From a virus (Duplodnaviria; Caudoviricetes), in the IMG/VR virus record IMGVR_UViG_3300025324_000012, positions 1 to 61,718 of that record: a DNA stretch of 61,718 nucleotides; one strand, 5' to 3'. The position numbers and the translations under genes were made by a program. This document shows positions 15,250-45,120 of this stretch, in pieces. Under the pieces are notes generated by a model. That model did not search any database and was not told the origin of the DNA. It saw only the letters and a program-made list of their open reading frames with translations. Position 1 is the stretch's first letter; each line of letters opens with the position of its first letter.

Positions 15250-15656
15250 TGTTACGACGTGGATTTTTGTCAGCTTTGGTTGCACCTGCTGTTTTGGCAG
15301 CAAAATCAATACCAGGTAAAGAAGATTCCGACGAATTTTTGTATAAAGGCCTCAAGATCACCTGGTCCGGCTTTTTACCTTCACAGTATAGCGTAGAATT
15401 GGTTGGTTATTGGTTAGCGCTGCGTCCTGATGGATATGGTCTGTATGCTACTACAGGTGGTTTTGGTCAGTTTTATACTCCTTACATGACTATGGATTTA
15501 CGTGTAAGCCATAATTTTCCTAGAGTGACAGCGCAGTCAAGCAATTTAGATAAGCAACAATGTAAAATGCGAGCACGTAATAATATTATTAAAATGTGCA
15601 ATAACCCAGAGGATTTTGAAGGCTCAGACAAGTGGTCTGCTGAGGAAATTGAGTAG
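15249..15656 (+). CDS. Twin-arginine-signal protein inserted between the terL halves
   Basis: MLRRGFLSALVAPAVLA N-terminus; GGAGG RBS; coupled at both ends. Confidence 0.8.
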   Translation: MLRRGFLSALVAPAVLAAKSIPGKEDSDEFLYKGLKITWSGFLPSQYSVELVGYWLALRPDGYGLYATTGGFGQFYTPYMTMDLRVSHNFPRVTAQSSNLDKQQCKMRARNNIIKMCNNPEDFEGSDKWSAEEIE

Positions 15657-18613: not shown

Positions 18614-18711
18614 AAAATTTGGTAGATATTGCTAAGATCAAAATCATAAACATAACAGGACTAAAATCTGTTAAAGAAATAGAATTGCTTCAGAAAACTA
18701 AGAAGAAATGA
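18610..18711 (+). CDS. 33-aa basic peptide MKNLVDIAKI...
   Basis: ATGA overlaps at both ends; GAGG RBS. Confidence 0.45.
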   Translation: MKNLVDIAKIKIINITGLKSVKEIELLQKTKKK

Positions 18712-20657
18712 CAATCCCAGATCAAGCAGCCCCAGGTAGCGTCTTAGGATGGTGTAAGGAAGCCGTCCAGGAGGGGCAGTCCTTTAATAAGTCTCAAAGA
18801 GGCTATTCTAAAGGTGCGGATTGTATTGACGCCATAATGGGGGATAAGTCAGACTTCCGGTCAACTACCCTTTCAAGTACCACTGCAAATCATTTAGCCA
18901 AGACCGCCGAGGATCTTACGGCGTATTTAACAGACATTAGGCCATTCTGGGAATATACTACCCGAAACAAGCGTTACGCGCAGAATGCCGATAATTATGG
19001 TAAGCTCTCCCTCCACTGGTGGTTGTGTGGGGGATCAGCCCATAAGGGCGCGGATATTGCTTTCACTGACGTAATTAAGTACGCTTTAGCCTGTGGAACT
19101 GGTTGGGCACATCAAACGTACTCTGATCGTTGGGGAGATATCATCCTTGAATCCGAAGACCCGCGCGACGTTTTACCCGTGCGGCCCTCCTCATATGATA
19201 CGATTCAGGATGCCCTTGGCGTTGCGGTGCGAAGGGAAAGAACAGTAAATTACGTTCGTGGGTTAAAGATGTTTGAGGGGCGGGAAAACCTAATCCAAGC
19301 CACACGGGATGGGGCTGTGCGGGATTCAATGGAGAATACTCGCGCAGGTAAGCTGATGGAGTGGTTGGGTTCTCCCTTTAGGGATAGACTATTCTCTAAT
19401 CGTGCTGCACGTGAGATTCATCGTATTCCAACACTTGACCTTACAACGCTTTACGTAGATGATCGAACGCGCTGGGAAGGTAGTACGCCACGCTATATGG
19501 GTGAGTGGCACGTCAGTCCTAAACCAGACTGCAAGGAGTGCGAAGTTAAAGGACCACACCCTTTAACGAACTGGTCTTATAAAGTAGAGAAAGGCGAGTT
19601 ACTATATCCTAATAAGAGGATGATTGTCTTCACCGACCAGTTGGTTGGTTATGATGGCCCTTCTCCATACTGGCATGGGCTATTTCCACTCTCTAAACTG
19701 ACGCTTATTCCTTATCCCTGGTCTTGGTTGGGCAAGGGCGCTCTCTGGGATCTTCTACCCTTACAAAGAGCACTGGATAAACTTTTAAGGGTGTGCGACG
19801 ATCACTTTGAGAAAATAGCTAGACCTGACGTAGTTGCTGATAAGAATAGCATTAGCGAAGCATTCCTTAAGAAGATTGATACCCGTAAAGCGGGAGGGAA
19901 GTTCAGGATTAATGCACTGGCAGGTAAGGGTTTCGACATTAAATATCCTAATCCTTTGCCGGCAGAAGTTACGCAAGCTATCCAGTTCTACATTCAAGAA
20001 ATGTCTACCCTATCTGGGGTTCAAGACATGTCCAGCTTGATGAAGTTAAAACAACTTCCTGAGGCTGATACTGTAGAAGCAATTATGAACTCTATGACGG
20101 GAGCGACGCGTTTAAGATCACGCGTTATAGAATCATTCATGCGTGAATTCGCTCAGATGTTAGCATTTAACTTCACGCAATTCTATACCTTACCTATGCG
20201 TTTAGCTATGCTAGGTGAGGCTGGAATGACTTTTGAAGATTTCGACTTCGATCCTGGTTCTATCCTACCTGATTTCGTTCATGCTTCTGATATAGACCCA
20301 ATTACTGGCGCGCCGACTACTGAAGCCGCACAACGTGGCCCGCGCCCAAGGGCTGATCGGGCTAAAGAATTTCTTCAGAATTTCAGCTACAATATCACTT
20401 CTTCGTCCCTTCTGGCTAGCAGTGAAGTAACACGCCAAATGAAGTATTTACAATTGGCACGCGCTGGATGGATGGATATTTGGACGTTATTTGAAGTACT
20501 GGACATTCCTAACGGTGGAGAACCTCCTGTTGGAGCCAAGACCATTCCAGAGAGACTTGCTGCACAGAACGAAATGGGTCTTGGAATGAATGTTAATCCT
20601 GCTGGACGTAAAGCCTCTGGGCAAAGTCCGCCCCGTGCAGTAGTAAAGGAGAGCTAA
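18708..20657 (+). CDS. Portal protein
   Basis: 649 aa after terL; A..CGTGW, DP..V and G.G....L..LQ..LDK pattern of podoviral portals. Confidence 0.85.
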   Translation: MTIPDQAAPGSVLGWCKEAVQEGQSFNKSQRGYSKGADCIDAIMGDKSDFRSTTLSSTTANHLAKTAEDLTAYLTDIRPFWEYTTRNKRYAQNADNYGKLSLHWWLCGGSAHKGADIAFTDVIKYALACGTGWAHQTYSDRWGDIILESEDPRDVLPVRPSSYDTIQDALGVAVRRERTVNYVRGLKMFEGRENLIQATRDGAVRDSMENTRAGKLMEWLGSPFRDRLFSNRAAREIHRIPTLDLTTLYVDDRTRWEGSTPRYMGEWHVSPKPDCKECEVKGPHPLTNWSYKVEKGELLYPNKRMIVFTDQLVGYDGPSPYWHGLFPLSKLTLIPYPWSWLGKGALWDLLPLQRALDKLLRVCDDHFEKIARPDVVADKNSISEAFLKKIDTRKAGGKFRINALAGKGFDIKYPNPLPAEVTQAIQFYIQEMSTLSGVQDMSSLMKLKQLPEADTVEAIMNSMTGATRLRSRVIESFMREFAQMLAFNFTQFYTLPMRLAMLGEAGMTFEDFDFDPGSILPDFVHASDIDPITGAPTTEAAQRGPRPRADRAKEFLQNFSYNITSSSLLASSEVTRQMKYLQLARAGWMDIWTLFEVLDIPNGGEPPVGAKTIPERLAAQNEMGLGMNVNPAGRKASGQSPPRAVVKES

Positions 20658-21379: not shown

Positions 21380-21735
21380 GCATAGCTAGGACTCCTTGGT
21401 TAGGGAATTTTACACTAAATGACACCGACGTCCATAGACTATCGGACATATTGGCTGATCCAACATACGTGGCAGCAGCATACAGGCCATTTTTTGGTGG
21501 TGGGAATGTTTCAAAGGCTCAGTTTCTGGTAATAAAGAATGATATTAATAATGGTGGAAAGAGGTTAAATCTTGGTAATGAAGGGTTATCGACGACCTTC
21601 TACGGAGATCAGTTAGTGGCGGGGCAGGAATTGCCAATTTATTCTATGGAATCTAATTTGATTGTCCTTGATGACATCTATTTGATGGCAGTGACTTCAG
21701 GTCTTGTCGTATGCGTAAAATTACTTACACGTTAG
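21376..21735 (+). CDS. Small beta-rich putative structural protein
   Basis: I.N......G......G..L........L.D.Y pattern shared with 20657..20929. Confidence 0.65.
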   Translation: MSIARTPWLGNFTLNDTDVHRLSDILADPTYVAAAYRPFFGGGNVSKAQFLVIKNDINNGGKRLNLGNEGLSTTFYGDQLVAGQELPIYSMESNLIVLDDIYLMAVTSGLVVCVKLLTR

Positions 21736-23750
21736 TCCTTATAGTCTCAGCCTGCCTCTGGCTGAAGGGACAGGGGAATACTATTACTATTCCTTTCAAT
21801 GGTGCTCCTCCGGCAGGTCCTAATCAATGTTCCTTTCTTATGCTTGCTAATGACATTCAAACTAACCCAGGTGCGTTTTATTTCTGTGATGGTTCTACAG
21901 GAACCTGGACTGCGTTAGGAGCTGGTGGGGGTTCTCCAGGCGGTTCAAATAATGCAGTTCAATATAGAATTAATGCTACCACTTTTGGTGGGGTAACACT
22001 AAACGCTACAGCGACAAATAAATTCCTTCGTCAGGTATCAAGCGGCGTGCCGACATTCGAGCAGCCTGCTTGCGCTGACCTGAGCGATTCCGGCACGGGA
22101 TGCTCGGGCGCGGCGGGCGGAGTAACCAGCGTCTTTGGGCGTACTGGCGCTGTCGTGGCTCAAGCCGCCGATTATGGTTTAGGATTGATCGGAAACCCCG
22201 CAGCGGGAACCACGTTCTCTTATGCGCTGAATCAGTCTTCCACCTGGGTGATGCAAGGGTCTGGGCGCTTTACGGTTCGTGGAACTCCATTGCAACTTGG
22301 GGACGTTGGCGGCGTAAGCGGCATATTAGACTTCTTTGGCACCACTAGTGGAAACGCTCAGATTGGTGTAGCAGATGTTGCAGGAACGCCGAACAGGATT
22401 AACCTGCCAACGCTCACAGCGGGCGCTGGAGAGTGCCTGAAAAGCGATGGTGGGAGTCCGCAAGCCCTGTCGTGGGGGGCTTGCGGCGCTGGTGGTGGTA
22501 CGACGGTCACTGTAGGTGGAGCAGGACGCAGTTCTACTATCAACCTAAGCGACTCAACTCCAGCCGCTGCCGGAGGCGGGATCAACGTCAAGTGGCAAGC
22601 GGACAGCGCCAACCCAGATCAGGTGTCGGCCTACTTGCCCGTGAGTAGCTACGCAGCGGCAAAAACATCGGCTACTTCATGGACAATCACGGGCGCGACT
22701 CATGGTTTGGCGACCTGCGACCTGATCGTCTACTTGACCAAGGATAACGGGACCCTACGGGAGCAGATCTTCCCCGACAAAATCAGTTGCGAGACGGCGG
22801 CGGGCGGAACTCAGTATGACGTAGTGGTGACCTGGACCAGCGCCCAGGCAGGAAACATCGTGCTGGTCAAGAACGGCGGCGCGGGAGCGAACGTCGGCAC
22901 AGTGACCAGCATCGCCACAACTTCCCCAATTACCGGAGGGACAATCACCAGCACTGGAACGATTGCCTGTGCTACTTGCGTCACTTCAGCAGCTTCTTTG
23001 ACTAGTGGTCAGCTTGTGGCCGGAGCCGGAGGCCAAGCGGCGGCGGTGACCAATCTGACTGGAGATGTGACTACTTCTGGAGGGGTAGCCACGGCGGTGG
23101 TCAATTTGCCGGATGGAGTCACTCAAGCCGGGCACCTTTTGGTAACGAACATGGCTGCTCCTACTTCCCCAGCAGCCGGAAAGATCAAGGTCTTCAGCGA
23201 TTCTACCAACCTGATCCTCTCCAGCAAGAATCCTTCGGGGGTTGTGAGCAACACTGTGGTGCCGGATGCTGGGGCTGCCAATAACTTTCTGACAGCGATC
23301 TCTGCGAGCGGCGTGATCAGTAAAGCGCAACCAGCGTTCAGTAATTTAAGTGGGTCAGCGACCACGGCGCAACTTCCAGCGAACTCGCTGGTAAGCGCGT
23401 TTGGATGCTCCTTCGATGGGGCTGGAAGCACGCTGACTGTGGGCAGTAAGTGCTACCTGACGATGCCTCCAGCCTGCACCATCGTGGCCTGGGACATTCA
23501 GGCAACTGGATCTTCACCTACGATCACGTTCGACATTTGGAAGCTGGCAACGGGCGGAACCGCTCTCCCGACAGTGGCGAATACGATCATGGGCACCAAG
23601 CCCGCACTGGCAAGCGGAAACGCGGTGCACTCAACGACTCTGACTGGGTGGACTACATCCGTGGCGGCGCACGACCGGATTGCCATCAACATTGATGCTG
23701 TGACGGTTGCGACGTGGGCCGAAATCACGGTGACTTGCAACAAGACATGA
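21711..23750 (+). CDS. Fibre-like protein with N-terminal signal peptide
   Basis: MRKITYTLVLIVSACLWLKG; G/T/A/S-rich; VTSVFGRTGAV and GTVTSI fibre motifs. Confidence 0.75.
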   Translation: MRKITYTLVLIVSACLWLKGQGNTITIPFNGAPPAGPNQCSFLMLANDIQTNPGAFYFCDGSTGTWTALGAGGGSPGGSNNAVQYRINATTFGGVTLNATATNKFLRQVSSGVPTFEQPACADLSDSGTGCSGAAGGVTSVFGRTGAVVAQAADYGLGLIGNPAAGTTFSYALNQSSTWVMQGSGRFTVRGTPLQLGDVGGVSGILDFFGTTSGNAQIGVADVAGTPNRINLPTLTAGAGECLKSDGGSPQALSWGACGAGGGTTVTVGGAGRSSTINLSDSTPAAAGGGINVKWQADSANPDQVSAYLPVSSYAAAKTSATSWTITGATHGLATCDLIVYLTKDNGTLREQIFPDKISCETAAGGTQYDVVVTWTSAQAGNIVLVKNGGAGANVGTVTSIATTSPITGGTITSTGTIACATCVTSAASLTSGQLVAGAGGQAAAVTNLTGDVTTSGGVATAVVNLPDGVTQAGHLLVTNMAAPTSPAAGKIKVFSDSTNLILSSKNPSGVVSNTVVPDAGAANNFLTAISASGVISKAQPAFSNLSGSATTAQLPANSLVSAFGCSFDGAGSTLTVGSKCYLTMPPACTIVAWDIQATGSSPTITFDIWKLATGGTALPTVANTIMGTKPALASGNAVHSTTLTGWTTSVAAHDRIAINIDAVTVATWAEITVTCNKT

Positions 23751-24493
23751 CGCCTGCGACCATGCCGAAGCGTCCGTGGAATGATCACCAGATCTACGCT
23801 CTATTGGCGGGCGCGTTGCTGTTCTGGGCGGCGTTGCTGTGGGCCACTTCCACGATCTATACCCAGCCGTTTTCCGCTGGTCATGGCTGGACCTACACGC
23901 AGGTATCCTGCGGCGGCACATGCAGCCAGGACATGGCTCATGCGGCTGACGGGAATCCCGCGCCGTCCATCTTGGCTAAGCTGGTCGGCAAGAACAAAAC
24001 CAGCGTAGGATACGCTAGCAAAAGTTACGCCTGGACAGCCCTCGGAGTTCCAGCAGGCGAGAATGTTTCGACGGTGGACGGGGCCTGGGACGCCAAGCAG
24101 ACTCACACCACCGGGAATTGCAGCACCAGCGCCACGATGGGGATGCAGTTATATGACAGCGGCAACACGGTCCAAATTACTACTTCCGCCGTCGAGCCAA
24201 ACCTGGACGTGAGCGGCAACACTTCGTGGACAACTAGGGATGGGGCAGGGGCCATCGCTGTAACGGGAACCTACGCGCCTGCGGCTACGACGATTACTTT
24301 GCGGCTGAACATGAATCCGGCGACTACCAACGTCACCAACGCCGATTGCGAGACCCTGGGCGACAACTACAAGCTCACCATCGTGTCAGCGGCGGGCAGC
24401 GTGATCCGCAAAAAACTCATTCTCGTCTGGGTTCCCGTCCAAGATAGGCCGCAACCCCTCGGTGCAAGCGCGGTTAAGGTGATTATTCAATGA
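23747..24493 (+). CDS. Signal-peptide-bearing beta-sandwich (possibly lectin-like) protein
   Basis: ATG 23747 overlaps the previous stop; IYALLAGALLFWAALLWA hydrophobic segment; 4 Cys. Confidence 0.7.
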   Translation: MTPATMPKRPWNDHQIYALLAGALLFWAALLWATSTIYTQPFSAGHGWTYTQVSCGGTCSQDMAHAADGNPAPSILAKLVGKNKTSVGYASKSYAWTALGVPAGENVSTVDGAWDAKQTHTTGNCSTSATMGMQLYDSGNTVQITTSAVEPNLDVSGNTSWTTRDGAGAIAVTGTYAPAATTITLRLNMNPATTNVTNADCETLGDNYKLTIVSAAGSVIRKKLILVWVPVQDRPQPLGASAVKVIIQ

Positions 24494-25251
24494 AAAACAA
24501 ATTGGTCTTTTTTGGGTTCCTGATGCTCGCACTTGCGGGAATTTTGATGACTCAGACTACACGTAACGGCGTAGCCTACTGGACGACATACACCGACATC
24601 TTAAAAATCGCCGCACCAAGCAATCCTGCCAGCGGAGATATCCGCCTCTATGCCAACTCGACCAGTGGCAATCTGGCTTGTCTAACCAGTTCAGGAGCCA
24701 GCTGTCTGCCTGCTGCGGGGACAATTACAGACAACGTCTGGATTCCAATGGCCTTTTCCCTAGACGGGAACGGTGGGCGAATTTCCTCTGGGGCATTCGG
24801 AAGTTCTGGCGCTCCAAGCTCCATCAGCGCAACCTCAGTAGCTTCCATTGGTTACACCGAGCAGTTCTTCGTGGATGCAGCCGATACCTATGCCTATTTT
24901 ATGTACCGGACGCACGACACCTGGACTGCAACACTGACTGTGGAAATTGAAGGTCGTTCAGGAAGCGCCGCCGCCAACAATGCAACCCTATCAGTTTCAA
25001 CATGGTGCCCTGCTATTGGAGTGGAGTTAAACCCGTCAAGTTTTAATACTGCAACCACGGGGGAGATGGCCCTTTCTGGAACTTCCCCTCAGAGGGCCAC
25101 TCCACTGGTTCTTAGTTCTATTGATGTGACTGGATGCGTTGGAGGCGAACTCATGTTCTTGAAAGTTGGTCGCGTTGGTACCGGAGGTAGCGACAATTAT
25201 GCAGGGACAATGGCCTTGCTGGGCTTTACTTTGAAGGTGACTCACAATTAG
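24490..25251 (+). CDS. Signal-peptide-bearing fibre-related protein
   Basis: MKNKLVFFGFLMLALAGILMT; AAPSNPASG.I.LY module shared with 21711..23750. Confidence 0.75.
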   Translation: MKNKLVFFGFLMLALAGILMTQTTRNGVAYWTTYTDILKIAAPSNPASGDIRLYANSTSGNLACLTSSGASCLPAAGTITDNVWIPMAFSLDGNGGRISSGAFGSSGAPSSISATSVASIGYTEQFFVDAADTYAYFMYRTHDTWTATLTVEIEGRSGSAAANNATLSVSTWCPAIGVELNPSSFNTATTGEMALSGTSPQRATPLVLSSIDVTGCVGGELMFLKVGRVGTGGSDNYAGTMALLGFTLKVTHN

Positions 25252-25264
25252 TGACGGTGATCCA

Positions 25265-25429
25265 ATGAGACGAAACGAACAAACCTCGGAACGCATGGGA
25301 CGGCTGGCGGCGAAGATTCTCCGTGACCACAAGCGTAGTAAGGATGAGCGCAGGCTGGCCGCATCAGTCCTGACACAACGTCCCAATAAAAAGAAAAAAG
25401 ATCGGAAGAAAAGAATTAAATCTTCCTGA
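25265..25429 (+). CDS. 54-aa basic small protein
   Basis: Own translation MRRNEQTSERMGRLAAKILRD...AASVLTQ; Lys/Arg-rich. Confidence 0.6.
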   Translation: MRRNEQTSERMGRLAAKILRDHKRSKDERRLAASVLTQRPNKKKKDRKKRIKSS

Positions 25430-25457
25430 TGAGTAAACAAATAAGAGAGGAGGAAAA

Positions 25458-25571
25458 ATGAAATACGGTTCTAAGTCAGGTGTAAAGCCTGGATATGGAT
25501 CTAAAGCAAAACCTGCTAAGAGCAAGGGCATGGTCGCTACTCCTGCTGTAGCAGTAAAGAAGGGTAAATGA
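25458..25571 (+). CDS. 37-aa Lys/Gly-rich peptide
   Basis: Strong GAGGAGG RBS; ATGA overlap with the next gene. Confidence 0.6.
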   Translation: MKYGSKSGVKPGYGSKAKPAKSKGMVATPAVAVKKGK

Positions 25572-25930
25572 CTTCATCAACTCCAACACGGTCTGGAGCT
25601 ATTCTTGATTCTCCGCCTCCTGCGGCTGGTAGGAAGTCAACCAGCCTAATGGAGATGGAGAGCGAGAGGGATACACCTCCATCCCCGCAGGCAGCAGTAA
25701 TGCTTGGAATGAATATGGTGGAGCAAGGTTCCAGACTAATTTCTATGTCATTGCCACAGATTGCGCCTGCAATGCAGCAGCTAATTACGCAATTGAGGGA
25801 CGTACTTCCAAGGGCAATGGCTGAATCACCAACTGGTGCTCCTATAGGAGGACAAGTTGGGGGGCCTGCTGCTGTAATACCACCACCAGGTGGAGGAATG
25901 CCTTCTGGTGGAGGAATGCCAGCAGCATAA
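25568..25930 (+). CDS. Hypothetical Pro/Gly-rich head-module protein
   Basis: Immediately before the scaffold. Confidence 0.7.
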   Translation: MTSSTPTRSGAILDSPPPAAGRKSTSLMEMESERDTPPSPQAAVMLGMNMVEQGSRLISMSLPQIAPAMQQLITQLRDVLPRAMAESPTGAPIGGQVGGPAAVIPPPGGGMPSGGGMPAA

Positions 25931-25979
25931 CAATCCTTCGACCAGGAAGTAAATACTTCTGGCGGACGAAAGGGAAATA

Positions 25980-26783
25980 ATGACACGCGAACAAGCAAGG
26001 ACGTACTTTAAGGAACTGGCGCAGAGGGGTGGAGTGGAAGAGAAAGAAATATCATCCATTCTGCAGGTTCTTGACGACGATAAAATGGGCAAACTATTCC
26101 TGGACGGTTTTGTTCCAAGACCTGAATATTCAAGTGCTTTGGATGCTAAGGTTAAGGAAGCAGAAGCCGCACGTGCAGAAGAAAAACGCATTAGGGATTG
26201 GCATGAGAAGGAAGGGAAACCTGCCTATGAAGCTAATCTCAAAGGTGTTGAGCGTCTTCGCAAGTATGAGGCACGCTTTGGCGATCTTGACGAGGAATCC
26301 ACTACCGAAGAAAAACGACGGGCCGCTGAGGGTAGTGGTCTGTCGATGAAACAAGTAGAGGAATACTTCGACAAGAAGATGCGTGAGCAGGGTCAGGCTT
26401 ATGTTAACTTGACCAAAACTGCCGTGAAAATCTCCCAGGATTACGGCCGGCGTTTCAACAAGAACCTTGATGTTGATGCGCTGGAGAAGTTTGCCATTGA
26501 TAAAGGACTGCCGCTGGATATGGCTTACCAGGAATTCATTAGACCTGAGGCTGAGGCTCAGACGACTGAACAATGGGAAGCTAAAATTAAGGCGGCCAGG
26601 GAAGAAGGTGCTAAAGACTATGCGTCCAAGCACAAACTCCCTGCAACATCAGGCCCAAGGGAACCGCATCCTATCTTCGATCATACTGAGCCAAAAGAAG
26701 GCGCAAATGATGGTGCAGGACGAGATGCATTCCTAGAAGGCTGGAATGAAGTGGCTGATGGTATTGTAGCACAAAACAAGTAG
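25980..26783 (+). CDS. Capsid scaffolding protein
   Basis: Charged coiled-coil directly upstream of the major capsid gene. Confidence 0.75.
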   Translation: MTREQARTYFKELAQRGGVEEKEISSILQVLDDDKMGKLFLDGFVPRPEYSSALDAKVKEAEAARAEEKRIRDWHEKEGKPAYEANLKGVERLRKYEARFGDLDEESTTEEKRRAAEGSGLSMKQVEEYFDKKMREQGQAYVNLTKTAVKISQDYGRRFNKNLDVDALEKFAIDKGLPLDMAYQEFIRPEAEAQTTEQWEAKIKAAREEGAKDYASKHKLPATSGPREPHPIFDHTEPKEGANDGAGRDAFLEGWNEVADGIVAQNK

Positions 26784-26839
26784 GCTGGCGGATTTTGATT
26801 AGTCAAGAGACGTCAGTCTAAATCTAACGAAAGGACAAC

Positions 26840-27958
26840 ATGGCAGAACTCAATCAGATTGACGTTTCTACAAAACGTTATATTCGCAATACGCCAAAAC
26901 TGGTGGATATGATTTTCCAGCAGGGCGTACTTGCGTCTTACGCTAAGCAAAATGTTCGTGAAGACTACGATGGTGGGCGATTTATCCAGGAGAACTTCTG
27001 GTACGGTGCATCCGTTGGGGGCTTCTACAACAAGGGGAAGGAATTCAACATCACTGAAAAGCAGCTGGAACAAGGCTGTCAATTCTTGCCCAAATTCCTT
27101 GAAGTGAATATCACGCTTGCCAAAGAAGATATTCAAGTAATCAACAAGGGACCGAATGCTGCTTTTAAGCTCATTGAGAGCCGCACGCAGAATGCTTACA
27201 TCACAGCAGGTGCGTTTCTCGAACTTGCTATGTATCTCAATGGCCAACGTGCTGGATTTACTCCAATGTTCAATGGTCTTGCGGAAGCCCTGAATGACAA
27301 TACGACCGTATCATGGGATAACAATCTTTATGCCACCTATGGTACTATCACTCGCGGTGGTACTACAGGAACAGCACTGAATAGTGTTCCTACTAACGTT
27401 GGTGGAACACTTCTCTATCCGACGTTGGAAGAAACCTATGGTCGGGCGTATTTTGGGCCTGACCCGTTTGAACCTAATCTTGGTGTGACGACTGTAATTG
27501 GCGCGTCTATCATCAAGAATAAGTTCCAAACCCAACAGCGTTTTAATGATACGCAAGTAATGGTTGCTGGCTTCAACTTCCGTGGTATGAAGTTCAACGG
27601 AGCCACTATTGTTGCTTCTCGTTACTGCCCTGGCTCTTACCTGTTCGGTTCTAGTGGTACTGCAGATCCTACGGCAGTATCATTTATGACTGAAGTTTCA
27701 GATGGAGCGCTAGTGGCATATCCTGCCCCTGTTGGTGGTTATCCAGCTGCTGGAACCAATTGGGAGACGCTGTTCTGGATCAATGCTCGCAAACCGTTTA
27801 TGAACTTCTACGTGTCCGACGACCCAGAATATGGTTTTGGGTTCACCGGATTTAAGCCCGCTCAGGGCAATACCAAGGTTGCTGGTCAGGTATTGTATTC
27901 TGGTGCAACAACTTTTGCACCTCGCTACCACCAACAGCTGTACAACATTACTGGTTAA
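26840..27958 (+). CDS. Major capsid protein
   Basis: 372 aa after the scaffold; GG..I, Y.NG...FNGL and G..F.G..FNGA.I patterns typical of HK97-fold capsids. Confidence 0.85.
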   Translation: MAELNQIDVSTKRYIRNTPKLVDMIFQQGVLASYAKQNVREDYDGGRFIQENFWYGASVGGFYNKGKEFNITEKQLEQGCQFLPKFLEVNITLAKEDIQVINKGPNAAFKLIESRTQNAYITAGAFLELAMYLNGQRAGFTPMFNGLAEALNDNTTVSWDNNLYATYGTITRGGTTGTALNSVPTNVGGTLLYPTLEETYGRAYFGPDPFEPNLGVTTVIGASIIKNKFQTQQRFNDTQVMVAGFNFRGMKFNGATIVASRYCPGSYLFGSSGTADPTAVSFMTEVSDGALVAYPAPVGGYPAAGTNWETLFWINARKPFMNFYVSDDPEYGFGFTGFKPAQGNTKVAGQVLYSGATTFAPRYHQQLYNITG

Positions 27959-27969
27959 GGGGGAAAACT

Positions 27970-28551
27970 ATGGGACAAAATAGACGACCCGCAAATACCA
28001 TCTACGTTGTATCGGGTAATCCTGATACAGTTAACGTTTCCCCCACAGACTGGACCAGCCTTGGTTATCGTCAGGGGGAATTAGGTCAAATCTTTGAGGA
28101 TCGGGGAAGGCAATACCAAGTCGTACAACTCGACTCTGGTGTTACGTCTGCCACCACAGGTGGAGTCGTAGCCGCAAATGATTTGGCTTTCTGGAAAGAT
28201 CGTGCCACCTACAGAGTAACCAAAGATCCTAACCAAGCCATTGGTGGACTAACTGGTTTCTACAATGAAGTCGCTGGGGTCTTTCGGACAGCAGTAACAC
28301 CTAACCTGACCGATGTTCTTGGTATTGGTCAAGTATGCTGCATTCTCCAGTCTGGTAGGAATATCCCTGTTAAGACCACAGGTACTCCTGCTATTGGTGA
28401 TCATGCCAGGGCCAACCAATCTACTCCTGTTGCAGACGTTGATAATACTCTTGGAACGACTGCCTGCCCTACTCAAAGGCTTGGTACATTTACAAGCACT
28501 ATCGTGGGCGGATTCTGCAACGTCGACCTGGACATTCCAGGCATCACGTAA
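27970..28551 (+). CDS. Capsid decoration (cement) protein
   Basis: Directly after the major capsid gene; LG......R.Y..V motif. Confidence 0.6.
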   Translation: MGQNRRPANTIYVVSGNPDTVNVSPTDWTSLGYRQGELGQIFEDRGRQYQVVQLDSGVTSATTGGVVAANDLAFWKDRATYRVTKDPNQAIGGLTGFYNEVAGVFRTAVTPNLTDVLGIGQVCCILQSGRNIPVKTTGTPAIGDHARANQSTPVADVDNTLGTTACPTQRLGTFTSTIVGGFCNVDLDIPGIT

Positions 28552-28561
28552 GGAGGCATAG

Positions 28562-28810
28562 ATGGCAGCAGCTACTGTTACTGGTTCTCAGCAGGTGTCG
28601 GTTCAGGGTGATGTCGAGTATATTGGAGCCAATTCCATTGCTTTCGCTGCAAACGGCGATACATGGGATACAGGTCTTGCAGTTATATTCGAGATCGGTC
28701 TAACACCAACAGTCAATACCGCTTTTGGATTTACGGTCTCTGGCGGAGTCATTACTCTTGTCTCTGGTGGAGCACTAACATTCAGGGGTGGTGTAAGAGG
28801 TAAATTCTAA
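28562..28810 (+). CDS. Small structural protein
   Basis: AGGAGG RBS; beta-rich. Confidence 0.65.
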   Translation: MAAATVTGSQQVSVQGDVEYIGANSIAFAANGDTWDTGLAVIFEIGLTPTVNTAFGFTVSGGVITLVSGGALTFRGGVRGKF

Positions 28811-28812
28811 CA

Positions 28813-30039
28813 ATGCTCGATACCTACACATCAATTTACAATAAGCTGAACCTTCGTTGCCCAGCTGCAAGCTCATTGCTGTGTAGGGATTGGGTATCAA
28901 ACGCATTTCGTCAAATTGCAGAGCGCAGGCGGTGGAGTTGGAAAATCAAATTCGGCCAGTTCATACTGCCTGCGCTTTACAATACGGGCACTGTCACTGT
29001 TACTAGAAATTCCACCACGGTGACAGGGGTTAGCACCGTGTGGGACAATACGATGGTTGGCAGGCAATTTAGATTGGGCACCTCGCCAATCTATACCATT
29101 GCACAAGTTAATTCTGCTACGTCGTTAGATTTAGACCTGGTATGGGGGCCGGCTACACAGAGTGGAGTAGGTTATTCGATCTATCAGGCTTATGTTACTC
29201 CACCAACTGACTTTCATTCGTTGATTTGTGTGTGGGATCCAAATTATAATTGGCAACTATGGTTGAATGTTACTCAGGATGAGATTAATGCCTGGGACGC
29301 ACAAAGGTCGAACGTAGGAACTCCTTATTTAGTAGCTTCTCGTGATTATAGTACCACGTATGCGGGGACAGTTAAATCCGCGCTGCAAGTAGTAGGTACT
29401 GGTCCTAATCCTGTTGCTACTAGTCAAGGAAATGGATATACCGGAGCGGTAAGTGGCGTGTTTACGGTAGAAGTTACTCTTGGAGGAATTTCTGGAACAG
29501 CTGAATTTAAGTGGAAGAAAGATTCTGGCTCATACCTGACTGGAATAGTAACTGATACAGCCGCTCAAGACCTACAAGACGGCGTGGCTGTTTACTGGCC
29601 TGATACTGTTACATATGTGGCTGGAGACGTATTTATCGTTCAGGCTGAGGCTATTATGCAGGGTGGATTGCCAAGATTTGAATTGTGGCCACACCAGCAG
29701 AGTGCTTATGTTTATCCATTTTTGTATGAAGCGCGTCCATCTGATCTAGAAGATACTGGGGCAAATCTTCCGCGTTATATTCGAGGTGACGTATTACTGG
29801 AAATGGCATTGGCTAATGCTGCACGGTGGCCAGGACCCTCGCAAGATAAACCGAATCCGTATTTCAATTCAAGTTTGGCCCTACAGCATGATAAAAGATC
29901 AGAATTTATGATTGCAGAATTGGAAAGGCAAGACGACGAGACTTATGAGAGGGACGCAAAATATCAAATAGTTTCTGCTTTACCTTTTGCTCCTTTTCCA
30001 TTCGGAGACAGCAATTGGATGCAAAGACATGATTTTTAG
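28813..30039 (+). CDS. Head-tail adaptor-like protein with inserted beta domains
   Basis: W.W after an N-terminal helix; LWP...Y...Y C-terminal adaptor pattern; YNTGTVTVT insert. Confidence 0.65.
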   Translation: MLDTYTSIYNKLNLRCPAASSLLCRDWVSNAFRQIAERRRWSWKIKFGQFILPALYNTGTVTVTRNSTTVTGVSTVWDNTMVGRQFRLGTSPIYTIAQVNSATSLDLDLVWGPATQSGVGYSIYQAYVTPPTDFHSLICVWDPNYNWQLWLNVTQDEINAWDAQRSNVGTPYLVASRDYSTTYAGTVKSALQVVGTGPNPVATSQGNGYTGAVSGVFTVEVTLGGISGTAEFKWKKDSGSYLTGIVTDTAAQDLQDGVAVYWPDTVTYVAGDVFIVQAEAIMQGGLPRFELWPHQQSAYVYPFLYEARPSDLEDTGANLPRYIRGDVLLEMALANAARWPGPSQDKPNPYFNSSLALQHDKRSEFMIAELERQDDETYERDAKYQIVSALPFAPFPFGDSNWMQRHDF

Positions 30040-30068
30040 CAGTTAAATCGTTCGACAGGAGAACAAAT

Positions 30069-30293
30069 ATGGCCGATAAGAATTTTGTAAGCACACCAGC
30101 AGATTGCATGGCAGAACCAAAGACTAAGGGTGGTCCTGGCGATTACAATGGTGAACCTGGACCTCAATACCAAAAGCGTACGATGGGACCTAACAGTGTT
30201 CCTGAGAAAACTTATGAGTCTTGGGACCTAAAGGCAGATAGTTCTACGGGAACTTTCGTGAGTACACCATCTAAACCTCCATTTGGTAAATAG
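30069..30293 (+). CDS. Hypothetical protein with repeated FVSTP motif
   Basis: AGGAG RBS. Confidence 0.65.
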   Translation: MADKNFVSTPADCMAEPKTKGGPGDYNGEPGPQYQKRTMGPNSVPEKTYESWDLKADSSTGTFVSTPSKPPFGK

Positions 30294-30302
30294 GAGAAGC
30301 CT

Positions 30303-32060
30303 ATGAGGAAAGTCCTATTTGTATTGTTCCTAAGTGTGTGTCTGCCTGTTTGGGGGCGAGGAAAACTTCAAGGATGGTGCGAGAATGGAGGAGTCACTGT
30401 CAGCATACCAGGAACGCAAGGTTCAGGTACGCAGAAGTTCCAACGCTCCTACGCATCCTGTACTGTGACTGTGTATCTGGCAGGAACAACGACAATAGCT
30501 ACGATCTATTCTGACGATTCTGGAACAGCCAAAGCAAATCCATTCACGGCAGCCAATTCTGGCCAATGGTTCTTCTATGCCGACAACGGAGTCTACGATA
30601 TAAAGTTTAGCGGCGGAGGAATTGCTTCTCCTTTTACTATTGGGGGGCGGTCTCTATGGAATCCAGCATCGGCTGGAGTAATTGTCGTAGACGGTATTCA
30701 GTATAAATCAATCGCTGCCGCTTACGCGGCTGGACCGTCTACGGGAGTAACGATCTATGTTCCAAAGACCTATACGACGTTATTCCCAACAGAGTCAGCG
30801 CAGGTATCTCTTGTGGCTGGTAAGCCATTCAATCTAAGCTGTGAAGCTGGAGTTATAATTGGGTGGAACATTGCAGGTTATCTGTTTGACTTGGGGGCAA
30901 CGACAGTAACTGAATTTGTCAATATTAGTAATTGTACCTTTTCTATTGGCTCTACAGCTACAGGTTGGTTACAAGGGGGACGGACAAGCCAGAACTCAGA
31001 TCCTACAAAATTGATCTACGGATGGTCTATCACTAACGTCCAGGTGATTGGACCCGGAGAGACAGTGGTTGGGAAGATTGGCATGGTCGTCACTGGATTC
31101 GTTGGGTTAACGATGACCAACTTTACCCTCCAGTTCTTTGAGCAAACAGCGATTTTTGATCGTTGCGCCATCATAACCGGGAATCACGTTCGATTCCAAG
31201 GATACAAGTTTGGTCCTCTGATTACGAGACAGGCTGGCACTGGAACAGCAGCTACATACACTTGCTCGCAGTGCGTATTTACGACCCCAGAGTTTCTTGG
31301 ACCTACCACGGGAACGCTGAACTATGGGGTGACGGTTGACCATGGTGGAGTTACGTTCATTGGAGCAATCTATGAGTCTAGTCAAGCAGGTAATCAGGCG
31401 TTTCTACACCAAACACTTTACGCTCGTGGATTTCGAGAATTTAGCGGGTTCATTTCTTCCGATGGGACTAATGTCGCCTACGTGATGGTATGGGACACTG
31501 CCATAACAGATTTAGCTTTTTTTGGAACGCAGGGTCCCAATAGCCCAATCTGCATAGGCGTTCCTGGTGCGTGTGCCGGCAATGCAGATACGGTCAACGG
31601 CAATCCAGTCGTTTGTCAGGGCTGCTCGGCTACTTTGGCGGCATCCTTCTTCGCACTCGGTGATGGCAATGCCGTTGTCTTTGGCGCATCGGTGGCAGAT
31701 GGAAGTTTGACAAGTGGGCATACATCTATCGGGCCAGTCAAGTTCAAGTTCAGCAGCACATCGGTCAACACAGCAACTTGGCCGGATGCTAGTGGAACCA
31801 TCGCCTATGTGATTACGGCAACCTCCAGTGCCTATGGAGGGGCACCATTGACCGCAGGCACATGTACAGGAGGATCAACTTCAACACCGGGGGCGACTAC
31901 TGCGATGGTCGCTACAGCATCTCCTGTGACTTATCCAGGGGATGGGATTTACTGGGTAGCTTATGTTGGCAGCGCGGATAATACTACCGTGAAGGTTTGC
32001 TCTACTTTCACTTCTCTCACCCCAACATCGAGCACTTATAATATCCGGATAGTAAAATAA
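30303..32060 (+). CDS. Tailspike-like protein (virion-attachment domain plus probable beta-helix) with signal peptide
   Basis: MRKVLFVLFLSVCLPVWG; VYLAGTTT.ATIYSD.....NPF.....G...FY...G.YDI domain. Confidence 0.75.
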   Translation: MRKVLFVLFLSVCLPVWGRGKLQGWCENGGVTVSIPGTQGSGTQKFQRSYASCTVTVYLAGTTTIATIYSDDSGTAKANPFTAANSGQWFFYADNGVYDIKFSGGGIASPFTIGGRSLWNPASAGVIVVDGIQYKSIAAAYAAGPSTGVTIYVPKTYTTLFPTESAQVSLVAGKPFNLSCEAGVIIGWNIAGYLFDLGATTVTEFVNISNCTFSIGSTATGWLQGGRTSQNSDPTKLIYGWSITNVQVIGPGETVVGKIGMVVTGFVGLTMTNFTLQFFEQTAIFDRCAIITGNHVRFQGYKFGPLITRQAGTGTAATYTCSQCVFTTPEFLGPTTGTLNYGVTVDHGGVTFIGAIYESSQAGNQAFLHQTLYARGFREFSGFISSDGTNVAYVMVWDTAITDLAFFGTQGPNSPICIGVPGACAGNADTVNGNPVVCQGCSATLAASFFALGDGNAVVFGASVADGSLTSGHTSIGPVKFKFSSTSVNTATWPDASGTIAYVITATSSAYGGAPLTAGTCTGGSTSTPGATTAMVATASPVTYPGDGIYWVAYVGSADNTTVKVCSTFTSLTPTSSTYNIRIVK

Positions 32061-32065
32061 GTGTT

Positions 32066-33412
32066 ATGTCTTATACGCACACCACATGGGTTCAGCTTCG
32101 TCAGCAACTCGCCGCAAGGTTGGCGGATATCAATAATGTTTTCTGGCTAGATGACGAACTTAAGGGATTGATTATAGAAGCCGTGAGGACTTTTGGTATT
32201 TTGTCGGGTTTTTGGCGTGAACGAGGTACCTTCAACACTGTTTCAGGAACAGTATTTTATGATTTGCCAACTAATTTGACGTCAGGATTACTAAATTATA
32301 CTGTAACAGATAGAGATGTAATTAAATCTCTACAATATAATCTACTGGAGTCCGTGTCAAGCCAGTCGTCATGGTCGGGGACGGAGATGTTTACTTTTGA
32401 TGATTTGGTTAGGGCTGTTGAGAGAAGAACTAACCAATTCCTGCAAGATACTGGAATCATCGTGACTCGCACAACTCCTGCCGTTGCACCACCTCCGATT
32501 GGACGAGTTAACTTGTCAGATGACATCATTGACGTTCGTCGAGTAGTTTGGGTTGACTCCTATGGACGCTATTATCCATTATGGAGAGAAGACGAATTTG
32601 CAATGACGGCCTATGATCTTAATTGGGCTATTAATCCTGGCACTCCATTATGCTACTCAATAATGGCTACGCAGCCCGTTCAAATTCAGTTAGGACCAGT
32701 TCCTATTGTTTCAGCTTCTTTGGAATTGCTTAGCGTAAATACTCAACCTTCATTAGATCCGAGTAGTGCTGCTACTATATTGAATTTATTTGACGACCTT
32801 ACCTGGATTATAAAATGGGGCGCATTAGCGGACTTATTGGGAATTGATGGGGCCGCAAGAGATATGAGTAGAGCTAAGTTCTGTGAGCAACGTTATCAGC
32901 AAGGTGTTCAACTTACTAGAATGCTAAGCTGTGTGATTCAAATTCAGATTAATGGAGTTCCTGTTCAGCCTAATACAGTATTTGATTTAGATGCAGCTGA
33001 TCCTAATTGGCAGAATAAGAGTGGTACGCCAAGGGACATTGGGATTGCTGGTTGGAATCAAATTTGTGTTAGTCCCATTCCTGATGGAGTATACTCTCTT
33101 ACTTTTGACGTAGCTAGGAAAGCGCCTATTCCTGTTAATGACAGTGCGTTTGTGCAGTTAGGACGAGAACAGATAGATATGATTCTAGATTATGCAGAAC
33201 ATCTTGCATTATTCAAAGTTGGTGGGGCAGAGTTTGCTGCTACTGCAAGACAGGCAGAGAATTTTCTATTGCAATCAATTAGCTACAATCAGAGACTAAG
33301 TGCATCAGCACGTTATATCATCACGCCAAAAGAATATAGTACACGTGAGGAACAATTTAGGCCACGTCGTATGAATGCAAACGCATTTGGTCCTGGAGTA
33401 GTGAATGCCTGA
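32066..33412 (+). CDS. Second adaptor-like tail protein (internally duplicated)
   Basis: LR.....RL.D.....W.DDEL...I N-terminus; two GP.P/SP.P...Y segments. Confidence 0.6.
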   Translation: MSYTHTTWVQLRQQLAARLADINNVFWLDDELKGLIIEAVRTFGILSGFWRERGTFNTVSGTVFYDLPTNLTSGLLNYTVTDRDVIKSLQYNLLESVSSQSSWSGTEMFTFDDLVRAVERRTNQFLQDTGIIVTRTTPAVAPPPIGRVNLSDDIIDVRRVVWVDSYGRYYPLWREDEFAMTAYDLNWAINPGTPLCYSIMATQPVQIQLGPVPIVSASLELLSVNTQPSLDPSSAATILNLFDDLTWIIKWGALADLLGIDGAARDMSRAKFCEQRYQQGVQLTRMLSCVIQIQINGVPVQPNTVFDLDAADPNWQNKSGTPRDIGIAGWNQICVSPIPDGVYSLTFDVARKAPIPVNDSAFVQLGREQIDMILDYAEHLALFKVGGAEFAATARQAENFLLQSISYNQRLSASARYIITPKEYSTREEQFRPRRMNANAFGPGVVNA

Positions 33413-36400
33413 AGCAGAAAAATACGATCGGGATCTTCAGCGTTTCTTGTGTCTTGGCCTTGACCTTAATAGGCCTGTAGACGCAGTACGTCCAGGTAGA
33501 TTTCCATTCCTGAAGAATCTGCGCTCTTATCAGGGCGAGCGCATTGATCCTCGCCCTGGACTTACCAAACTTGGAACTAATGGAATAGTAATTTCTGGTG
33601 CTACCCCAGTCCATTCAATGCGTCGGTTAAATGATCCACTCGCGGCAGACCATACACGTATTATTGGAACTGGGCAAGCGCTAGCTTATGGTAAAGTAGA
33701 TCCATTTACGCAAGTAACATATGCAGGTGGGAATGCTGGATTCTCTGGTAATCCCCTTGCGCTAGTTCAGTACCGCCCAGAAGCATCTCCAAGATCGTGG
33801 ATGTACATTGGAGATTCCGCGCCGACTGTTGGGGCGGGGGTAGCTGCTGGTACTTTAGCTACTACGTTGAAGAAGATTCGTATTAGCGGAGAGATGCATC
33901 AGTTTGGTTTGCCTACTCCAGTTTTGCCCACTCCGAACTTGTGGGAGACTGCGGTAGTATTAAGTGTTCCCTCGTATAAGTACACTGACCCTGACCTAGA
34001 TTTTGAGTATGCTAATAATGCGGCACTGCAGGCTGATTGGATTGGTGTTTATGTTCCAACTGGTGCTTCTGTACTTCCTATTTTAGTAGCTCCAGCAAGA
34101 GTTGCTACAACTATCCAAGCGGCTGCGGGTACTCCTGATGGTATTCTATTTGATGTTGGTACTACTGGATGGGCATGTGTTAGACCTGCATCAACTGCAC
34201 AAATGGGACGGGGTGTAATTCTTCGTATTAATTCGGGCGGTGGGACTGATGAACGGACTATAATTCAAGAGATACACCCAGTTTCTACAGCTACTACAAT
34301 AGGTTCCATTATTTATGATACTGGAACAACTGGTTTATGCTCAATTGTTTTGACTACTCCAGTTGAACAAGTTGATGTAAATGCAATGCTGTTGAACTCT
34401 ACCTTAGTAACAGGACCAACAACAGGTCAATATTCTAGGATATTATCAGTTAATCGGGGCTCGGACGGAACTGTATCTCTTAGATGTTCAACAGTTGGGA
34501 CTTGGGTAGCAGGGCATTCTGTTCAGCTTGTTGCTTCCTTTCGTGCATATTTTGCCAATAATCATGTTGGTGGGGAAGCAATTGGAGCCAATGCCGCTAC
34601 ATTCTCCTGCGCTGTAGGAACAACCACCTTAACAAGAACAGCAGCATTTGACTTCTCAATTATAGAAACTGGAGTTCCAGTAGGACCTGATGATTACATA
34701 CACATCTCACTTCGCGCTGATGTTCCATCTAGCATTTCTGAGGGTAAGATATTATTCGACGTGGATCTTACGACTAATGACTTCACGCGTAATTTTTACT
34801 ATAAGGCGTTTAGGTCTAACGATCTCACGCCGTCTGCGCGAAACTTGCAGACATTGGTGACTACCGGCCCTACCGTTGTAGCAAGAGAGATTATTGATAC
34901 GTCATTAACTCAGGATGAATTTGCTCCTATAACTCTCTCACCTTATCAGGATATAGTAGAGACTCCTGTTGATACTACAGATTCTACCAGCCAGCAATTA
35001 GATTTGGGTGACGTGCAGTGGACGGAATTGGTATTCAAAGTTTCTGATTTGATTAGGGTTGGAACTGACTTTACACGTACACTAGCTAACATCGCGTCAA
35101 TACGACTTCTATTGACGACGACTGCAACAGTAAACTTAGCAATTGATGACATTTGGATTGGTGGAGGTTATGGTCCTGATGTGGTCGAGCCTACCGGGTC
35201 ACCATACATATATCGCTATCGGGCGCGTTCTAGCCAATCAGGCGCTAGAAGTAATGCATCGCCTCCATTTCGCGGCGGCGTATCGCCACGTCGCCAACGT
35301 GTAAGCATTACGCCCCCCGCATACGCATTAGCCCCAGCATCGGAAGCGGACGTGTTAGATATTGAACGTTTGGGCGGGGAAATCCCAACGTGGCATTATA
35401 TTGGTACAGTGCCTAATGATGGTACAACGGCATGGATAGATAAAATGTCAGATGATATTGTTGCAGGATTGCCGAATCTCGGAGATGCATCATTTCAACC
35501 CTGGCTAACCATTGGGCTACCTGCTACGGGTAACACAACAGCAGTATCTGGAACTACTGTTAATGGAACTGGATTCAATACTGCTTGGGCACAAGGGACT
35601 GTATTACAAGTTAATGGAATTGCCTGCAACCTTTACCGGGTCATTTCTACTACGCGCTTGGAGGTTTATCAAAATCTAGGCACTATGACTGTGGTGCCGT
35701 GGGTGGTAGCTGAACCACAATTAGTAAGTCAACCACTTCCGTGCTTATGGATGTCGGAGGAGGATAATGTCTGGATGGGGTGTGGTGATCTTACTAATCC
35801 TGGTAGATTATACTGGTGTCAGCCAGGAACAGAGGGCATGAAAGAGAGAAATTGGAAGGATATTACTTCCCCTTCTGAACCACTGATGAATGGTGTCCAT
35901 TATAATGGTAGGGATTATGTATGGTCAACCGAGAGAATGTTTCAATTACTCTCACGTCGTCTATCAGATGGGTCATTCACTTATGAAGCTCAGGAAATTC
36001 CTAATGGTAAAGGATTGTTTGCACGGTGGGCAATTACTTTAATTCCAGGCTCCGAGATTCAGTATTTAGCCAAAGATGGAATCTACACTACTGGAGGTGG
36101 AAGTCCTCGTTCACTAACGGATGAGTGGTTATACCCACTATTTCCTAAGGAGACACAAGCGGGAACTGCGACTAATGGTGTTCGTGCCCCGAACATTTCG
36201 GCAACTAACCAAGAGAGATTGAGATTAAATTTCTGCGCTGGATTTCTTTATTTTGACTATCTTGACGCCTCTAACAACCCTGGAACTTTATTATATGTAC
36301 CAGAATCTGATGGTTGGTTCTACGACGTGTTTAGTACAGCAGCCGTATTCCATTATGGGGACGAAGGTCAGAATGTAAGAGCCATCTTCGTTGGGGATGC

Positions 36401-42605: not shown

Positions 42606-43012
42606 TGGACATATACGAGCAATTGCGTCGTGATGAAGGCTTAAGGTTGAAACCATACCTTGACAGTGTGGGGAAAATGACTATCGGAGTGGGTAGAAAT
42701 CTAACAGATAAAGGTATAACACAAGCTGAAGCTGATAGATTTTTATTTAACGACGTTGATGAAGTTTATGCAGGCCTTGAAGACGCGGGCTACGTTGGTG
42801 GGGTAAATGATGCACGTTATTATGTTCTTGTAAATATGGCCTTTAATATGGGTATTAATGGACTATTAGCATTTAAGAGAATGCTAGCAGCGTACAGGAT
42901 AAGAGATTGGGAGACTGCTGCTACTGAAATGCTTGATAGTAAGTGGGCTACTCAAGTAGGCGCACGATCTGAGCGCCTGGCCCTGCAAATGAGGATGGGA
43001 GAATGGGTTTAA
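42605..43012 (+). CDS. Endolysin, GH24 (T4-like) lysozyme
   Basis: E-x8-D-x5-T triad (DEGLRLKPYLDSVGKMTIG); NMAFNMG; SKWATQ. Confidence 0.95.
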   Translation: MDIYEQLRRDEGLRLKPYLDSVGKMTIGVGRNLTDKGITQAEADRFLFNDVDEVYAGLEDAGYVGGVNDARYYVLVNMAFNMGINGLLAFKRMLAAYRIRDWETAATEMLDSKWATQVGARSERLALQMRMGEWV

Positions 43013-45119: not shown

Positions 45120-45120
45120 T

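Follow-up and report, generated by a model that had tools for sequence, protein, structure and literature searches.

The late operon of the virus record IMGVR_UViG_3300025324_000012 encodes four proteins that begin with Sec-type leaders, and comparison with their relatives makes it probable that these proteins are exported and folded oxidatively, i.e., with disulfides. The analysed stretch, referred to as the window, comprises a complete assembly, a single contig of 61,718 bp from a podophage-like genome with SU10-type portal and adaptor. The proteins are named here by the start coordinates of their genes:

21711..23750, plus strand: fibre-like precursor, 679 aa, with a leader at about residues 1-20 (21711-21770), MRKITYTLVLIVSACLWLKG
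23747..24493, plus strand: 248-aa protein with an N-terminal signal or signal-anchor, hydrophobic at residues 16-33 and ending LLWA/TST; 4 Cys
24490..25251, plus strand: short fibre or tip protein, 253 aa, with a leader or anchor at residues 1-21, hydrophobic at residues 5-21; 4 Cys
30303..32060, plus strand: tailspike precursor, 585 aa, with a leader at residues 1-18 (30303-30356), MRKVLFVLFLSVCLPVWG

The leaders, their conservation and cysteine linkage, the tailspike architecture of 30303 and the position of its gene emerge from the comparison of related sequences. The preliminary description of this DNA had proposed export and disulfide folding in the periplasm. This proposal now appears strongly supported by leader conservation, the linkage of a cysteine pair to the leader, even cysteine numbers, and leaderless relatives starting at the predicted cleavage point. 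Chances are about even for the full chain of events, in which appendages folded in the periplasm dock on cytoplasm-built particles after the holin lesion. In the textbook view, tailed-phage assembly is wholly cytoplasmic.

Leaders, start codons and cysteines

Basic-hydrophobic leaders had been reported for these four open reading frames (ORFs), together with 14, 4, 4 and 13 post-leader cysteines in 21711, 23747, 24490 and 30303, respectively, and our recount agrees on all points. The fibre-like 21711 contains 15 Cys, one of them in the leader, and its mature part with the remaining 14 is rich in G, A, T and S. Likewise, one of the 14 Cys of 30303 lies in the leader. The assignment of cysteines to local pairs was read from their spacing alone. 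Among the 93 window ORFs, which were called greedily, an equal N-terminal hydrophobicity was seen only in the small ORF 2297-2458 and in ORFs 43200 and 43463 of the lysis region.

Leaders were detected by a heuristic of our own for n-, h- and c-regions, not by SignalP. It flags all four leaders. In 24 related viral contigs, it flags none of 95 proteins homologous to portal, capsid, adaptor, nozzle, terminase and the like. The heuristic is permissive: 11 of the 93 window ORFs are flagged, about five of which have long acidic N-regions and are likely false positives. A basic n-region, a hydrophobic core of 7-15 residues and small residues at positions -1 and -3 were found in 30303 and 21711, as expected for Sec and signal peptidase I substrates. 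Cleavage (marked by a slash) is predicted at ...PVWG/RGK in 30303 and at ...LKG/QGN or ...VSA/C in 21711.

Neither 30303 nor 21711 has a start codon that would yield a leaderless protein. The ATG of 30303 is preceded by AGGAG 6 nt upstream, and the only in-frame alternatives, TTG at codon 8 and GTG at codon 12, both lie within the hydrophobic core; no Shine-Dalgarno motif precedes the GTG. In 21711, no in-frame ATG, GTG or TTG occurs from the ATG to the predicted mature end. For 23747 the ATG start is given, the longest ORF of that frame starting at GTG 23714, and the starts of 23747 and 24490 overlap the preceding stop codons as ATGA.

A signal for twin-arginine translocation (Tat) is not apparent, RR occurring in none of the four leaders. 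Bacterial lipoproteins are marked by a lipobox ([LVI][ASTVI][GAS]C), which is matched by V-S-A-C at residues 12-15 of 21711; L-S-V-C in 30303 is a poor fit. A lipoprotein was rejected as the principal reading of 21711, since the leader of P0062, its closest relative, is free of Cys.

Pfam contains no family for the four proteins, save one sub-threshold row for the ORF starting at 23714. The only PHROG match among them links residues 524-679 of 21711 to phrog_35197 (E 1.6e-14), a family of unknown function. No muralytic domain was found in any of the four by Pfam or PHROG, and tblastn of 21711, 23747 and 24490 against 50,697 cultured phage records gave no match. A Dsb-like or chaperone-like helper was not recognised by Pfam or PHROG among the small neighbouring ORFs and ORF 15249, a subset of the 93.

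Families of the spike and of the upstream cassette

A search of 5.8 billion proteins yielded 58 relatives of 30303. With the exceptions of P0003 and P0010, they match its first 100-130 residues only (56/58), and their C-terminal parts vary, being pectate-lyase-like, beta-helix or SGNH hydrolase. A simple threshold on hydrophobicity assigns a hydrophobic leader to 41 of the 58. The leaderless relatives begin M-Q/E-K/R-V/L-Q-G-W, which corresponds to the predicted mature start of 30303 (...VWG/RGKLQGW). Immediately before the conserved domain, 52/58 rows have A, G, S, T or C at -1 and 53/58 have a residue of an allowed type at -3; three of the 58 rows are over-extended ORFs of leaderless proteins. 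What is kept in all four families is the leader as a feature, not its sequence.

To these relatives the spike ORFs of 24 IMG/VR contigs were added, and 81 distinct N-domains were aligned; in four rows, over-extended or truncated ORFs were corrected by eye, the leaders being visible on inspection. Both cysteines of the anchor domain (C26 and C53 of 30303) occur in 42 of 56 leader-bearing N-domains versus none of the 25 leaderless ones. The same relation is seen on a single contig, L019 (10004-14293), where two adjacent spikes share the anchor domain: the leader-bearing one has the Cys pair, the leaderless one lacks both Cys. Leader status at the 24 loci is 12 with, 11 without and one cut by the contig end. 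For genome-level concordance, L014 stood for its near-copies L015 and L016 as well, and two further contigs, L007 and L019, were excluded as undetermined or mixed. Leaders on other large non-core proteins amounted to 14/29 in phages with leader-bearing spikes versus 5/21 in the comparison group, which is not significant (p 0.14).

The genes 21711, 23747 and 24490 form a cassette (21711-25251) whose families reveal a similar picture. The 172 relatives of 21711 are mosaic, and some contain fibre modules such as the Peptidase_S74 chaperone, PTR repeat or DUF5907. Among the 120 listed of these 172, 98 are leader-like, and 86 of the 98 have an even number of post-leader Cys (p 6e-15). Two relatives, P0082 and P0088, display an N-terminal four-Cys zinc-ribbon-like motif followed by a membrane-spanning stretch, so that their predicted topology is anchored and not cleaved; one of the two is named as a protein of a metagenome-assembled genome (MAG) from Acidobacteriota. 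In the family of 23747, 14/16 relatives keep the hydrophobic stretch directly before a conserved A-T-S/T-T junction, and the remaining two are fragments starting downstream. Its structural neighbours in the Atlas resemble carbohydrate-binding modules (TM about 0.5), a lead by which 23747 is possibly a carbohydrate-binding beta-sandwich. Many longer proteins, of up to 1,135-1,984 aa, end in a stretch homologous to residues of about 75-253 of 24490. Among the 150 best representatives of this family 115 are leader-like, 96 of them with even Cys numbers (p 1e-13), and the structural neighbours in the Atlas are mostly viral. The fibre-, tip- or lectin-like nature of the cassette proteins fits receptor-binding appendages. 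A Cys pair limited to leader-bearing forms and even Cys numbers would be unexpected if the proteins stayed in the cytoplasm.

For 30303, the preliminary description had placed the leader directly before a tailspike-type attachment domain, and N-terminal homology to tailspikes of cultured phages supports this view. The protein consists of an anchor-type domain (residues 19-122; 30357-30668) and a right-handed beta-helix at about residues 125-490. At about residues 24-107, 30303 matches the N-terminal ends of proteins annotated as tailspikes or tail proteins in phages of Serratia, Erwinia, Escherichia and Oceanospirillum, as well as that of Tunturi_1 gp12; the E values are 2e-5 to 2e-4 for the tailspikes of the Serratia, Erwinia and E. 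coli phages. In an AlphaFold2 model based on 51 sequences, a leader helix spans residues 2-17, the N-domain is modelled with a predicted local distance difference test (pLDDT) score above 90, the beta-helix with moderate confidence (pLDDT 50-79), and the C-terminus poorly. The central helix of this model is right-handed and parallel. The whole model ranks the Sf6 and P22 tailspikes first in Foldseek (E 1.3e-4 and 2e-3), and VIA-align relates residues of about 125-490 at Z 13-16.4 to phage tailspikes or depolymerases (7chu, 7vz3, 4oj5, 6w4q, 6c72) and to pectate-lyase-fold enzymes.

The N-domain modelled alone (pLDDT 88.7) leads to 7eeq_A, 9vyg_o/m, 2vky and 7sg7_C as top Foldseek rows (TM about 0.5, E 0.015-0.65), i.e., tail-complex entries of the cyanophages Pam1 and Pan3 and head-binding domains of P22 and Sf6. 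With E values this weak, the likeness to particle-binding domains of podoviruses is suggestive and not a proof. A sequence search of the N-domain against PDB chains returned nothing below E 0.6.

The nearest cultured relatives are the Tunturiibacter phages Tunturi_1 (PP887698.1) and Tunturi_2, with 20.6% identity between the portals over 97% of length. As far as described in the main text of PMC11924767, they are podoviruses of an Acidobacteriota host, with the morphology seen by electron microscopy. Five Tunturi_1 proteins, gp12, gp13, gp14 ('tail spike protein'), gp16 and gp17 ('virion structural protein'), possess classic leaders ending A-x-A and contain 20, 10, 21, 2 and 32 Cys, respectively. 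In gp12 an N-domain of the 30303 type directly follows the leader (40.7% identity over residues 24-107). Tunturi_1 thus resembles the window in that all large spike- or fibre-like proteins carry leaders and in its homologous capsid, adaptor, tail protein and portal. It differs in being a distant relative and in its much longer spikes (675-1,190 aa).

Leader or not, the spike gene is located in a block of tail protein, spike, adaptor and nozzle in those related contigs where core homologs flank it; around the spike genes of L026 and L027 no core virion homologs were seen. In the window, the corresponding genes belong to a podophage-type late operon, the plus-strand block of 12-44 kb:

14044-15249, plus strand: terminase-like half, matching the N-terminal half of single ORFs in relatives
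18708..20657, plus strand: portal (PF23899 SU10_portal, E 2.5e-5, below the curated cut-off; phrog_156, E 5e-8)
25980-26783, plus strand: scaffold-like acidic protein
26840..27958, plus strand: major capsid protein (28% identity to the Tunturi_1 'major head protein', E 2e-20; no match in Pfam or PHROG)
28813..30039, plus strand: leaderless tail-fibre-like or tail protein, whose N-terminus matches 'tail fiber protein' PHROGs (E 1.5e-9)
32066..33412, plus strand: leaderless head-to-tail adaptor (PF24175 SU10_adaptor, E 2e-16; 31% identity to Tunturi_1 gp30)
33405..37130, plus strand: leaderless nozzle-like tail protein, 1,241 aa, named from position and size (no family match in Pfam or PHROG)
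42605..43012, plus strand: leaderless lysozyme-type endolysin (phrog_7 endolysin, E 9.7e-23), without an N-terminal hydrophobic stretch
43200-43466 and 43463-43897, plus strand: two small membrane-protein ORFs with predicted hydrophobic segments (no family match)

The nozzle-like protein adjoins the adaptor in related contigs too, with full-length identities of up to 44%. The 28813 protein shows 25% identity to the 'tail protein' gp11 of Tunturi_1. Its gene directly precedes that of the spike, and related contigs show synteny between the two; the protein is a candidate docking partner. Judged by its synteny with the adaptor and nozzle genes, 30303 may be a part of the virion docked there. A docking run with the adaptor, the 28813 protein and the mature N-domain of 30303, based on alignments, scored 0.00 and, performed without controls, gives no verdict.

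A proposed two-compartment route and its rivals

According to the route we propose, all four are peripheral host-recognition proteins, 30303 being a beta-helix tailspike and 21711, 23747 and 24490 fibre, tip or lectin-like proteins. They would be threaded unfolded into the periplasm as Sec-type preproteins, and the leaders of 30303 and 21711 would be removed, most likely by signal peptidase I; 23747 and 24490 may remain membrane-anchored. Folding and presumably oligomerisation would take place in the periplasm, with disulfides introduced via the host Dsb system. Meanwhile the DNA-filled particle with portal, adaptor and nozzle would be built in the cytoplasm. The two sets would stay apart until the inner membrane is breached by the holin lesion, meeting then or afterwards in the lysate, and the spike would dock via its N-terminal domain. 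Thus, from the features described above we infer export, cleavage, disulfide formation, presence on the virion and the timing of docking. The endolysin is leaderless, and its access to the wall would therefore need a holin lesion, large enough to let proteins pass; by position and hydrophobicity, ORFs 43200 and 43463 are holin-like. P22 tailspikes can join spike-less particles in vitro, which makes late docking feasible.

Several observations weigh against this route. The Cys pair is missing from 14 of the 56 leader-bearing N-domains, 30303 itself has an odd number of post-leader Cys (13), and even numbers are not enriched in its family (28/44, p 0.10). In the family of 21711, the Cys content does not differ between leader-bearing (1.68%) and leaderless (1.72%) members. 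The N-domain tree contains only one independent leader/Cys pair on supported branches, with nine leader changes in the best tree; given traits shared by descent and a single supported contrast, a repeated origin of the association is not demonstrated. R follows the predicted cleavage site (+1) in 28/58 rows, and R or K is frequent there; in E. coli, basic residues after the cleavage site slow Sec export. The hydrophobic stretches of 23747 and 24490 are longer (17-19 residues), as possibly in uncleaved anchors. None of the fold matches of the N-domain falls below E 0.001. The main text of PMC11924767 mentions neither signal peptides nor virion proteomics for the Tunturi phages. Finally, the cassette 21711-25251 may be an acquired, non-virion one. 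Its genes reach a GC content at third codon positions (GC3) of 0.56 (21711), 0.71 (23747) and 0.51 (24490) versus 0.25-0.44 in other late genes, and they sit between the portal-proximal genes and the scaffold. With this GC3 island, the cassette looks recently acquired from a GC-richer source; related contigs have 55-66% GC.

The stronger of two rival explanations, which we hold to be rather unlikely, is that the proteins are exported and never join the particle, acting free in the envelope or outside the cell as enzymes or lectins. Possible roles are exopolysaccharide trimming for progeny escape, destruction or masking of receptors (superinfection exclusion, or preventing sticking to debris), and polymer degradation by auxiliary metabolic genes. 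Export signals and Cys signatures suit this explanation equally well, and a GC3 island between portal and scaffold is an odd site for tail parts. The zinc ribbon and membrane anchor of P0082 and P0088 suit residence in the envelope, and a leader-bearing N-domain protein is encoded on a 5-Mb Acidobacteriota MAG contig with no phage core homologs detected nearby. Moreover, tailspike-like enzymes of bacteria are exported, e.g., WceF of Pantoea via a Tat signal, as stated in PMC7949094. However, the N-terminal domain that annotated tailspikes of cultured phages possess is retained in 30303, and so is the place beside adaptor and nozzle, as in its leaderless orthologs. Besides 28813, the window contains no other leaderless receptor-binding candidate with an enzymatic or tip domain recognisable by Pfam or PHROG, and the genes gp12-gp17 of Tunturi_1, about 12.7 kb of 63 kb (L001 10371-23028), are a lot for accessory functions. 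By place and composition, a non-virion role is more plausible for 21711-25251 than for 30303. Display on the infected cell, which the preliminary description had named as its alternative, or secretion without virion attachment fits the cassette best.

Very improbable, in our view, is that the leaders are not used for export at all and the proteins, cytoplasmic or on the cytoplasmic face of the membrane, join particles as usual, the hydrophobic N-terminus being a tether, an assembly aid or removed otherwise, or, as a variant, an internal start giving a leaderless virion form plus an exported free form: the established picture of tailed-phage assembly, the basic residues after the predicted cleavage sites and the GTG at codon 12 of 30303, within the leader, speak for it, but the -3/-1 pattern lies at a fixed distance from the domain, the Cys pair occurs only in leader-bearing forms, Cys numbers are even, and the GTG lacks a Shine-Dalgarno motif while 21711 lacks any internal start.

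Extending the two-compartment route beyond the window, we tentatively suggest, with slightly less assurance than for the chain itself, that a large, mostly uncultured podophage lineage including Tunturi 1 and 2 builds its virions in two compartments, head, adaptor and nozzle in the cytoplasm and the whole host-recognition apparatus, which would acquire its disulfides there, in the periplasm, and completes them only just after the holin lesion. If this holds, the host range of these phages would depend, in a hidden way, on how competent a host is for secretion and on its Dsb activity. Routing through Sec would add an assembly step, so that host Sec, signal peptidase and Dsb would control phage yield. 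It would also explain how phage spikes could have many disulfides, which may stabilise them outside the cell. Pectate-lyase-like or SGNH enzymes with leaders that are regarded as 'auxiliary' in soil viromes may be tailspikes, and the reverse may hold as well. Direct tests are possible on Tunturi_1 and its host Tunturiibacter psychrotolerans, a pair in culture that shows the trait.

Further genes, host lineage and known systems

Among species-representative genomes, 4/5 matches fall into Acidobacteriota MAGs; the remaining one is a short contig, phage-like in character, that was binned with a MAG of Gemmatimonadota. Together with the Tunturi link, these matches point to Acidobacteriota as hosts of the lineage, though not firmly of the window phage itself, whose GC content is 43-45%. 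The protein L032:5992-7692, leader-bearing and with the spike N-domain, is encoded on an Acidobacteriota MAG contig of 5.03 Mb. No homolog of the window's core genes was found within 6 kb; a prophage of some other type may harbour this gene, or it may be bacterial.

The window is organised in three strand blocks, and no tRNA genes were found in its 61,718 bp. The terminase large subunit is seemingly split in the window: L009 and L020 have single ORFs of 700-727 aa, whose N-terminal half is matched by 14044-15249 and whose C-terminal half is matched by 15656-16480. In L010 the halves are adjacent genes; in the window a 135-aa ORF (15249-15656) separates them. This ORF begins MLRRGFLSALVAPAVLA, a twin-arginine-like (Tat-type) leader with RRGFLS, contains 2 Cys and has no Pfam or PHROG match; the late operon may, judging from this leader, encode a fifth exported protein. 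On the minus strand, five glycosyltransferase-like genes (GT2, GT4 and PLOD-GT types) are clustered at 44194-51361, together with three methyltransferase-like genes and a B12-binding radical SAM enzyme, and an additional GT2 gene lies at 56562-57266, also on the minus strand. Their products could modify glycan, virion proteins or DNA.

Superinfection-exclusion lipoproteins such as Llp of T5 are phage-encoded and exported, too, and act on receptors, but they are small lipoproteins. The window proteins have 248-679 aa and a fibre or spike architecture, and VSAC in 21711 is their only lipobox-like motif.

Exported lysis enzymes of phages are also comparable; among them, PMC6116005 describes the signal-peptide endolysin Lys44 of fOg44 and signal-arrest-release (SAR) endolysins such as Lyz of P1, whose leader Cys takes part in disulfide isomerisation. 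The likeness lies in late phage proteins travelling via Sec, and a leader Cys is found in 21711 and 30303 as well. The difference is that Lys44 and Lyz are lysis enzymes, not virion appendages. WceF of Pantoea stewartii, in turn, combines a trimeric beta-helix of tailspike fold with an export signal, according to PMC7949094, and is among the fold matches of 30303 (6tgf). Unlike the Sec-type preproteins of the window it has a Tat signal and is exported folded, and its gene lies in a bacterial exopolysaccharide locus. The window leaders are short, very hydrophobic and devoid of a twin-arginine motif, and the 30303 gene belongs to a phage tail module. Known parallels routed by Sec or Tat are thus exported and SAR endolysins and a bacterial tailspike-like enzyme. 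No description of tailed-phage fibres or spikes made with signal peptides was found in the full-text literature searched, subscription journals and supplements being outside its coverage.

In architecture, the counterparts are the podovirus tailspikes and related depolymerases. With P22 gp9, Sf6 gp14, the CBA120 TSPs and depolymerases of Klebsiella and Acinetobacter phages, 30303 shares a small N-terminal beta-domain followed by a right-handed beta-helix. As in podoviruses, its gene is located beside those of adaptor and nozzle, and the N-domain is kept among its relatives while C-terminal enzymatic parts are swapped. These counterparts fold in the cytoplasm and are leaderless; in the tailspike of Serratia phage MTx, the homologous domain starts at about residue 10, with no leader before it. 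In contrast, 30303 starts with a Sec-type leader of 18 residues, its anchor domain contains a Cys pair, and its mature part has 13 Cys.

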